Positions 55,781 through 56,453 of a stretch of 64,000 nucleotides of DNA are shown here, one piece after another. The position numbers were made by a program, and so were the translations under genes. A model generated the notes under the pieces. It worked only from the letters and a program-made list of their open reading frames with translations. It made no database searches and was not told the origin of the DNA. The stretch's first letter is position 1; each line of letters begins with the position of its first letter. The DNA comes from Escherichia phage NHEP10: the sequence record PQ511148.1, one strand, 5' to 3'.

Positions 55781-55989
55781 AGCCATGCCACCTTTAAGCA
55801 ATATTCTTCTACATGTTGTTTACGGCCTTTCTTATCAATAAAGGTATATTCAACGAATGTTCCGATGTAGTCTTTATCTACATCATGTGGACTATTGATT
55901 GGACATTTGGTACGACAAATGCGTTCCCATCGACGAATAATTACTGCCTTATTCTTTGGGTCATATGGATGTGGATAATGTATATTCAT
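55777..55989 (-). CDS. Hypothetical protein (70 aa)
   Basis: Start set to MNIHYPHP. Confidence 0.45.
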   Translation of the reverse strand: MNIHYPHPYDPKNKAVIIRRWERICRTKCPINSPHDVDKDYIGTFVEYTFIDKKGRKQHVEEYCLKVAWL

Positions 55990-56453
55990 AATAATGGTTC
56001 CCAATCAACAATCACAATTTCTAGTTTAGTGGAATACGTATCTAAAATCTCTTCGATGACATCCCAGTTTCCACCACCGATACCTGCACCAATTCTTGGC
56101 ATATAAATTACAGGCTTTGTTATCTTATTCTTTCCGAATTCATTTAATTCTATTATACAATTCATTAAAGCAGAGTATTCAAAATTAGGTCCCGGCTCAA
56201 ACTGTGTATAAAGATTAAAGCAATAAGCTTTATGGGTCTTAAAATATTTTTCGTAAACCGAATAAGTCCCGAGTTTAGACTCGTCTCCAAATTCGGTTTG
56301 AAGTTTATCGGCTTCCAGAATTTTTGGATAAGCCTTTGCTAATTGTCCTGCCACACCTGCGCCCATTGTATGAAAACAATTACACCCATGAGCGATATTA
56401 TTACCTTTAGAAAACAGGGCGACAATATCGCCCTTGATATAGTTTTTAATCAC
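55986..56453 (-). CDS. Macro-domain protein (ADP-ribose binding/hydrolase fold)
   Basis: GDIVAL...IAHGCNCFHTMGAGVAGQ...IGAGIGGG macro motifs; no in-frame ATG, start placed at GTG 56453. Confidence 0.6.
   Translation of the reverse strand: MIKNYIKGDIVALFSKGNNIAHGCNCFHTMGAGVAGQLAKAYPKILEADKLQTEFGDESKLGTYSVYEKYFKTHKAYCFNLYTQFEPGPNFEYSALMNCIIELNEFGKNKITKPVIYMPRIGAGIGGGNWDVIEEILDTYSTKLEIVIVDWEPLL

Follow-up and report, generated by a model that had tools for sequence, protein, structure and literature searches.

A stand-alone macrodomain of a Mosigvirus phage, orthologous to T4 Tk.4 (AdfM) and a likely counter to the toxin DarT2

Macrodomain motifs were read in an open reading frame (ORF) whose first in-frame ATG lies inside the domain, in the genome of a phage that also encodes two Mod-like ADP-ribosyltransferases. 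This raises the questions of where the protein begins, whether it has a macro fold and whose ADP-ribose it would handle. Two functional options had been offered in an earlier note made from the sequence: that the protein reverses or reads modifications made by the Mod-like enzymes of the same phage, or that it counters ADP-ribosylating defences of the host. Here we address these questions in the window, by which we mean the whole stretch of 64,000 nucleotides from Escherichia phage NHEP10 (PQ511148.1) that was analysed.

Gene identity, neighbourhood and start codon

Read from its first possible start, a TTG, the ORF occupies 55986..56483 on the minus strand (165 aa) and ends in a TGA at 55986-55988. 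It belongs to a packed minus-strand string that comprises regB, vs.1, vs, the macrodomain ORF, three small tk.x genes and tk, of which the following are referred to below:

57341..57799, minus strand: regB, a member of the tk.4 gene string
56790..57332, minus strand: vs.1, a member of the same string
56446..56793, minus strand: ORF homologous to vs (valyl-tRNA synthetase modifier), named vs in JN02, NHEP36, RB69 and T4
55986..56453, minus strand: macrodomain gene, orthologue of T4 tk.4 / adfM, 155 aa with a GTG start and a TGA stop
55777..55989, minus strand: tk.3 homologue (Pfam DUF7202, E=3.5e-38), arranged as in T4
54804..55385, minus strand: tk, a member of the same string

The window belongs to a T4-like Mosigvirus (RB69 group), and its bases 55400-57400 are 99.0-99.6% identical to those of the Mosigvirus Escherichia phages JN02 and NHEP36. 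T4 Tk.4 aligns with the window protein over the full length without gaps (130 of 155 residues identical, 84%; E=2e-104), RB69 Tk.4 (NP_861803) is nearly identical to it, and the gene order vs / tk.4 / tk.3 is common to the window, T4 and RB69. The macrodomain ORF is the RB69-type copy of T4 tk.4, a gene that is already known and has already been named adfM. The T4 and RB69 reference records of tk.4 carry the remark 'contains A1pp phosphatase motif', so the macrodomain call is a long-standing one.

Both ends of the gene overlap their neighbours. The 3' end of vs overlaps the macrodomain start by 8 nt, and the macrodomain TGA shares the sequence ATGA with the ATG of the tk.3 homologue, which is also the arrangement in T4; these overlaps make translational coupling probable. 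T4 differs at the upstream junction, where tk.4 begins with ATG and overlaps vs by 4 nt, whereas RB69 has the same GTG as the window between the same neighbours, vs upstream and tk.3 downstream. Within the macrodomain gene, the longest uninterrupted stretch of nucleotides shared by the window and T4 is the final 38 nt of the ORF (55986..56023), which span the ATGA overlap and the presumed tk.3 ribosome-binding region. Elsewhere in the string, the vs.1 homologue (56790..57332, minus strand) has a borderline match to SLT lytic transglycosylase (20.0 bits against a cut-off of 21.3, E=5e-4) and is named 'endoribonuclease' or 'hypothetical' in some records.

Three sites bear on where translation of the macrodomain begins:

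56451..56453, minus strand: GTG start codon, from alignment with the T4 ATG, 32 IMG/VR loci and the annotation of RB69, moha and Mizar
56464..56468, minus strand: Shine-Dalgarno-like GAGGA, read directly, 10 nt before the GTG and within the end of vs
56364..56366, minus strand: first in-frame ATG (Met30), the truncated start of some GenBank records

The GTG start and the 10-nt spacing to GAGGA that the earlier note had proposed are both borne out. The ATG of T4 tk.4 aligns base for base with the window GTG, with a GAGGA 11 nt upstream in T4. The count was limited to IMG/VR loci with a match starting at query residue 1, and all 32 of these have a start codon at the GTG position (ATG in 28, GTG in four). 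The GTG start is already annotated in RB69 (NC_004928), moha and Mizar, and the Mizar record also annotates a ribosome-binding site at the GAGGA.

Initiation at the upstream TTG codons (56483 and 56462) was rejected. Homology with T4 begins exactly at the GTG, and in loci L004 and L005 and in phage Mizar (96-99% identical) a TAG lies in frame two codons 5' of the GTG, so that the upstream TTGs cannot serve as starts there. The TTG at 56462 is TCG in locus L006 and lies only 1 nt from the GAGGA. The internal ATG was rejected as well. It does lie inside the domain, as first noted, being residue 30 of 155 and beyond two strands of the predicted model; a protein initiated there would lose core strands 2-8 and 20-25 together with H22 and N25 of the H22-G-C-N25-C motif, and so could not form the macro fold. 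A CDS that begins at the internal ATG (381 nt, 126 aa) is annotated in JN02 (MT782071, L001 2087-2467) and NHEP36 (PQ511151, L002 1087-1467), so that vs appears to be followed by a gap of 80 nt and the 29 N-terminal residues are lost.

Macrodomain fold and active site

The motifs from which a macrodomain was first proposed (KGDIVAL, IAHGCNCFHTMGAGVAG and PRIGAGIGGGNW) are all present in the translation, and the identification is upheld by family profiles and by the predicted structure, the check that had been suggested for it. Pfam Macro (PF01661) matches with 28.1 bits against a gathering cut-off of 22 (E=2.2e-6), covering profile positions 2-117 of 118, and PHROG 335 matches with E=7.7e-67. 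An AlphaFold2 model built with 88 homologues as input has the mixed alpha/beta macro fold (mean pLDDT 95.9, pTM 0.91). The best Foldseek matches of this model in the PDB are TARG1 (E=2.7e-10), Poa1p (E=9.3e-10), the DarG proteins of Thermus aquaticus (Taq) and Mycobacterium tuberculosis (Mtb), BT1257 and SCO6735 (E=2.3e-6), all with a probability of 1.00, placing the protein in the TARG1/Poa1p/DarG structural class. Homologues were found by tblastn in 2799 phage records. In one of them, Salmonella phage BPS15Q2 (Felixounavirus; L056 2983-3768), a 261-aa 'phosphatase' has the macrodomain at its N terminus and continues into an additional C-terminal region.

The sole NCBIfam match of the protein is to antitoxin DarG (NF048014, E=8e-8), in the macro part only, and its sole PADLOC match is likewise to DarG (E=9e-9, 33.2 bits, model positions 4-145 of 329). 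We considered and rejected an assignment to DarG proper, taking the Mtb (5m3i), T. aquaticus (5m31) and T. africanus (7omu) structures for comparison. The NF048014 match reaches 31.9 bits against a cut-off of 250 and covers model positions 4-146 of 338, the 155-aa protein is without the C-terminal DarT-binding domain, and a glutamine (Gln84, in NLYTQ) stands opposite the catalytic lysine K80 (FPTK/NFPTK). There is also no adjacent darT, the five neighbouring ORFs that were searched being without a PADLOC match or a DarT Pfam domain.

The residues expected to form the active site lie in three segments:

56346..56390, minus strand: loop-1 motif HGCNCFHTMGAGVAG, residues 22-36 including N25, from conservation in 88 homologues
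56202..56204, minus strand: Gln84 codon (motif NLYTQ), where DarG and TARG1 have their catalytic lysine
56064..56099, minus strand: loop-2 motif PRIGAGIGGGNW, residues 119-130, a glycine-rich diphosphate-binding loop, from conservation and alignment

In loop 1, C26, G33 and A35 are invariant among the 88 homologues, and H22, G23, N25, M30 and G31 are conserved in at least 90% of them. In loop 2, P119, I121, G122 and G124 are invariant and I125, G127, G128 and W130 are conserved in at least 90%; this loop aligns with the PRIGCGL and PPLGxGNGGL loops of TARG1 and DarG. Conservation and alignment thus predict N25/G31-A35 and G122-G128 as the ADP-ribose-binding loops. N25 aligns with N23 of the PhiKZ macrodomain AdfM, mutation of which lowers activity (PMC13309987).

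Gln84 is invariant in the 88 homologues. Profile HMM alignments place N80-L-Y-T-Q84 on NFPTK of the Mtb and Taq DarG proteins and on LITK84 of TARG1, leaving the protein without the catalytic lysine. The registration of the active site was taken from these profile alignments, a MAFFT alignment of eight macrodomains having shifted the beta-5 motif by two residues. Human TARG1/OARD1, which acts on Glu/Asp-linked protein ADP-ribose, shares the loop motifs with the window protein but has a K84/D125 catalytic dyad, opposite which the profile alignment places Q84 and G126.

A glutamine at the DarG/TARG1 lysine position is the trait of SCO6735 from Streptomyces coelicolor (PDB 5e3b), in which Gln85 occupies that place (PMC9411070), and Q84 corresponds to SCO6735 Q85 by transitivity via TARG1 and DarG. 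SCO6735 is, like the window protein, a stand-alone macrodomain of this structural class, with about 22% identity to it (phmmer E=7e-5, profile E=2.4e-14), although its gene is chromosomal in a bacterium and driven by a DNA-damage promoter and the window gene is phage-encoded. SCO6735 cleaves thymidine-linked ADP-ribose on DNA, its Q85A/E mutants are inactive, and it protects against DarT without belonging to a DarTG operon (PMC9411070). The invariant Gln84 makes a chemistry like that of SCO6735 more probable for the window protein than one like that of DarG or TARG1, and from this correspondence we infer a Gln84-based mechanism.

PhiKZ gp104 ('AdfM'), a DarG2-like antitoxin of a chimallivirus, is likewise a stand-alone phage macrodomain that defeats DarTG2 (PMC13309987). 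It is of the DarG type (E=9e-25 to Mtb DarG, with an FPTK motif), whereas the window protein is of the glutamine type and of a different lineage, and the two are remote: BLASTP aligns 23 residues and hhalign gives a probability of 96%. A further difference is that gp104 is imported into the phage nucleus (PMC13309987). The name AdfM has been given in separate papers to these two remotely related macrodomains, PhiKZ gp104 and T4 Tk.4, and the shared name could mislead annotation transfer.

Action against DarTG2 and competing functions

To the fold, orthology, gene order, start codon and active-site residues established here, the literature adds an anti-DarTG2 phenotype, demonstrated by others and in T4 only. 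In a November 2025 preprint using T4 transposon libraries, tk.4 is the single significant gene required on E. coli expressing DarTG2, a clean tk.4 knockout is sensitized to DarTG2, and the gene was renamed adfM (anti-DarT factor Macrodomain); the study is genetic, and its authors write that enzymatic removal of ADP-ribose 'seems likely' (bioRxiv 10.1101/2025.11.20.689424). A second factor had been implied by the finding that T4 without the NADAR factor AdfN is still resistant to DarTG2 (PMC11825919). For PhiKZ gp104 the reaction has been observed in vitro, where the protein strips DarT2-made ADP-ribose from a TNTC oligonucleotide (PMC13309987). The second option of the earlier note, countering of a host ADP-ribosylating defence, thus finds support in the T4 orthologue, which is 84% identical, has the same gene order and protects against DarTG2.

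We consider it likely that the Mosigvirus tk.4 orthologue is a stand-alone macrodomain that counters DarT2 as an 'orphan antitoxin' by DNA de-ADP-ribosylation, probably with SCO6735-like chemistry. We predict that the protein is produced by translation that is probably tightly coupled within the regB / vs.1 / vs / tk.4 / tk.3 / tk.2 / tk string, its GTG overlapping the end of vs and its stop overlapping the start of tk.3. During infection the host toxin DarT2 would place ADP-ribose on thymidines of single-stranded phage DNA, and the macrodomain would grip this ADP-ribose via loop 1 (H22, N25 and G31-A35) and the glycine-rich loop 2 (G122-G128). It would then hydrolyse the ribose-thymine bond, probably by means of a glutamine-positioned water as in SCO6735 instead of a catalytic lysine, allowing phage replication to go on. 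For the window protein itself, de-ADP-ribosylation of DNA is what we infer from these relatives.

The alternative that survives best, though we regard it as unlikely, is that the protein is mainly a small-molecule enzyme, a Poa1p-like ADP-ribose-1''-phosphate (Appr-1''-p) phosphatase or O-acetyl-ADP-ribose deacetylase that tidies NAD-derived metabolites during infection. By single-sequence search the closest biochemically characterized relative is indeed yeast Poa1p, a metabolite phosphatase acting on Appr-1''-p (phmmer E=1e-8), and the two share the motif H-x-C-N-C...(S/T)-x-G-x-G. Within this motif H22 and T29, the latter a conservative change, stand opposite Poa1p H23 and S30, residues whose H23A and S30A mutants have PDB entries; Poa1p differs in having a serine opposite Q84 and a large insert, in an alignment that is approximate in the middle of the Poa1p sequence. 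PHROG 335 and the RefSeq records also bear the name 'phosphatase', but these names are transferred annotation and not assays. Many macrodomains have weak Appr-1''-p phosphatase activity in vitro without this being their role, and for the T4 orthologue no phenotype has been reported other than a loss of resistance to DarTG2.

Gene context in one other phage also favours a metabolic role. In Acinetobacter phage vB_AbaM_D22 (MT188223, L055 440-3974), a macrodomain homologue directly follows PRPP-synthetase-like and nicotinamide phosphoribosyltransferase (NAMPT-like) genes, with abutting starts and stops, suggesting a link to NAD metabolism, and this gene pair resembles phage NAD+-reconstitution pairs. 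The D22 context hints that some family members serve in NAD/ADP-ribose salvage, instead of or besides DNA repair.

Slightly less probable still is neutralization of DarT2 mainly by binding of the toxin or of its modified product, without catalysis, so that the protein would be a stoichiometric inhibitor or sponge. Such inhibition is conceivable, given that the inactive Q85A mutant of SCO6735 continues to inhibit DarT in vitro, and more strongly than dead DarG or TARG1 (PMC9411070), and the canonical catalytic lysine is absent from the window protein. However, the DarT-binding domain that DarG carries at its C terminus is missing, the match being confined to the macro part of the model, and the catalytic residues of the relatives are retained among the 88 homologues, Q84 in all and N25 in at least 90%. 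SCO6735, which has the same glutamine, is moreover a real hydrolase (PMC9411070).

The two Mod-like ADP-ribosyltransferases described in the earlier note at 7916-9163 are present, with PHROG matches of about E=1e-38:

7916..8524 and 8582..9163, minus strand: two Mod-like ADP-ribosyltransferase ORFs, PHROG 832 'RNA polymerase ADP-ribosylase' (E=3e-38 and 7e-38)

Neither ORF has a Pfam match, and their homologues are annotated modB or RNA polymerase ADP-ribosylase. The link drawn between these enzymes and the macrodomain does not hold up. It is very improbable that the macrodomain erases or reads the protein ADP-ribosylation (or RNAylation) carried out by the Mod/Alt transferases of the phage itself, even though writer and eraser would be encoded in the same genome and ADP-ribosylation systems often contain such pairs. 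About 47 kb separate the macrodomain gene from the Mod-like genes, which belong to another gene block, and the distributions differ: 2799 phage records have the macrodomain family against 1077 with Mod-like proteins, and the former include phages of Pseudomonas, Vibrio, Acinetobacter, Campylobacter and Rhodococcus, genera that are all missing from the ten most often named for Mod. T4 Alt, ModA and ModB modify arginine, and we know of no macrodomain of the TARG1/DarG class that cleaves arginine-linked ADP-ribose. T4 tk.4 was, furthermore, depleted 'specifically in presence of' DarTG2 (bioRxiv 10.1101/2025.11.20.689424).

The vs / tk.4 junction and implications for T4-like phages

The beginning of the macrodomain gene carries, in addition to its coding sequence, a candidate RNA element:

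56416..56434, minus strand: 8-bp G+C-rich hairpin, with a T-run to about 56408, in macrodomain codons 7-13 and 12 nt after the vs stop

Its minimum free energy is -13.0 against -4.1 +/- 2.0 for a null of synonymous resamples, in which the peptide was fixed and codons were drawn by window codon usage, and 0.08% of the resamples are equally stable; for the T4 hairpin the figure is 0.02%. The hairpin is identical in T4, and nine consecutive codons are identical to those of the window against a background of 58%. In the distant loci L028 and L029 a stem is found at the same codons with a compensatory change from C-G to A-T, while the hairpin is absent from most other T4-like clades. The hairpin is one of the terminator-like hits of the region, which are no more numerous than chance predicts, and a promoter scan of 54200..58600 gave 13 sigma-70-like sites against 15.4 expected, with nothing usable. 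The hairpin may terminate or attenuate transcription behind vs, or it may act on translation or mRNA stability.

We tentatively propose, as a combined view that falls somewhat short of an even case, that T4/RB69-type AdfM and its relatives in about 2800 phage genomes form a lineage apart from the DarG-type macrodomain of PhiKZ gp104, with a lysine-independent glutamine-water mechanism as in SCO6735, and that expression of this anti-defence gene could be adjusted, or transcription attenuated, by a selected 5' hairpin. Neither the glutamine mechanism nor the hairpin is mentioned in the AdfM papers (bioRxiv 10.1101/2025.11.20.689424; PMC13309987). A 2026 preprint on Migulavirinae and Thoeris was set aside, as its macrodomain mention concerns host ThsA and no phage macrodomain.

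That phages encode 'orphan antitoxin' macrodomains which remove ADP-ribose from DNA has already been established by others or is in press. The glutamine in place of lysine in the active site may be new, a small mechanistic addition that would be of use to AdfM and DarG biochemists. The main practical value of the present analysis lies in annotation. Automated pipelines that insist on ATG often shorten the gene to 126 aa, hiding the N-terminal strands and the active-site asparagine, and the presence of an intact macrodomain in RB69-type phages matters for predicting which therapeutic or model phages overcome hosts bearing DarTG2.
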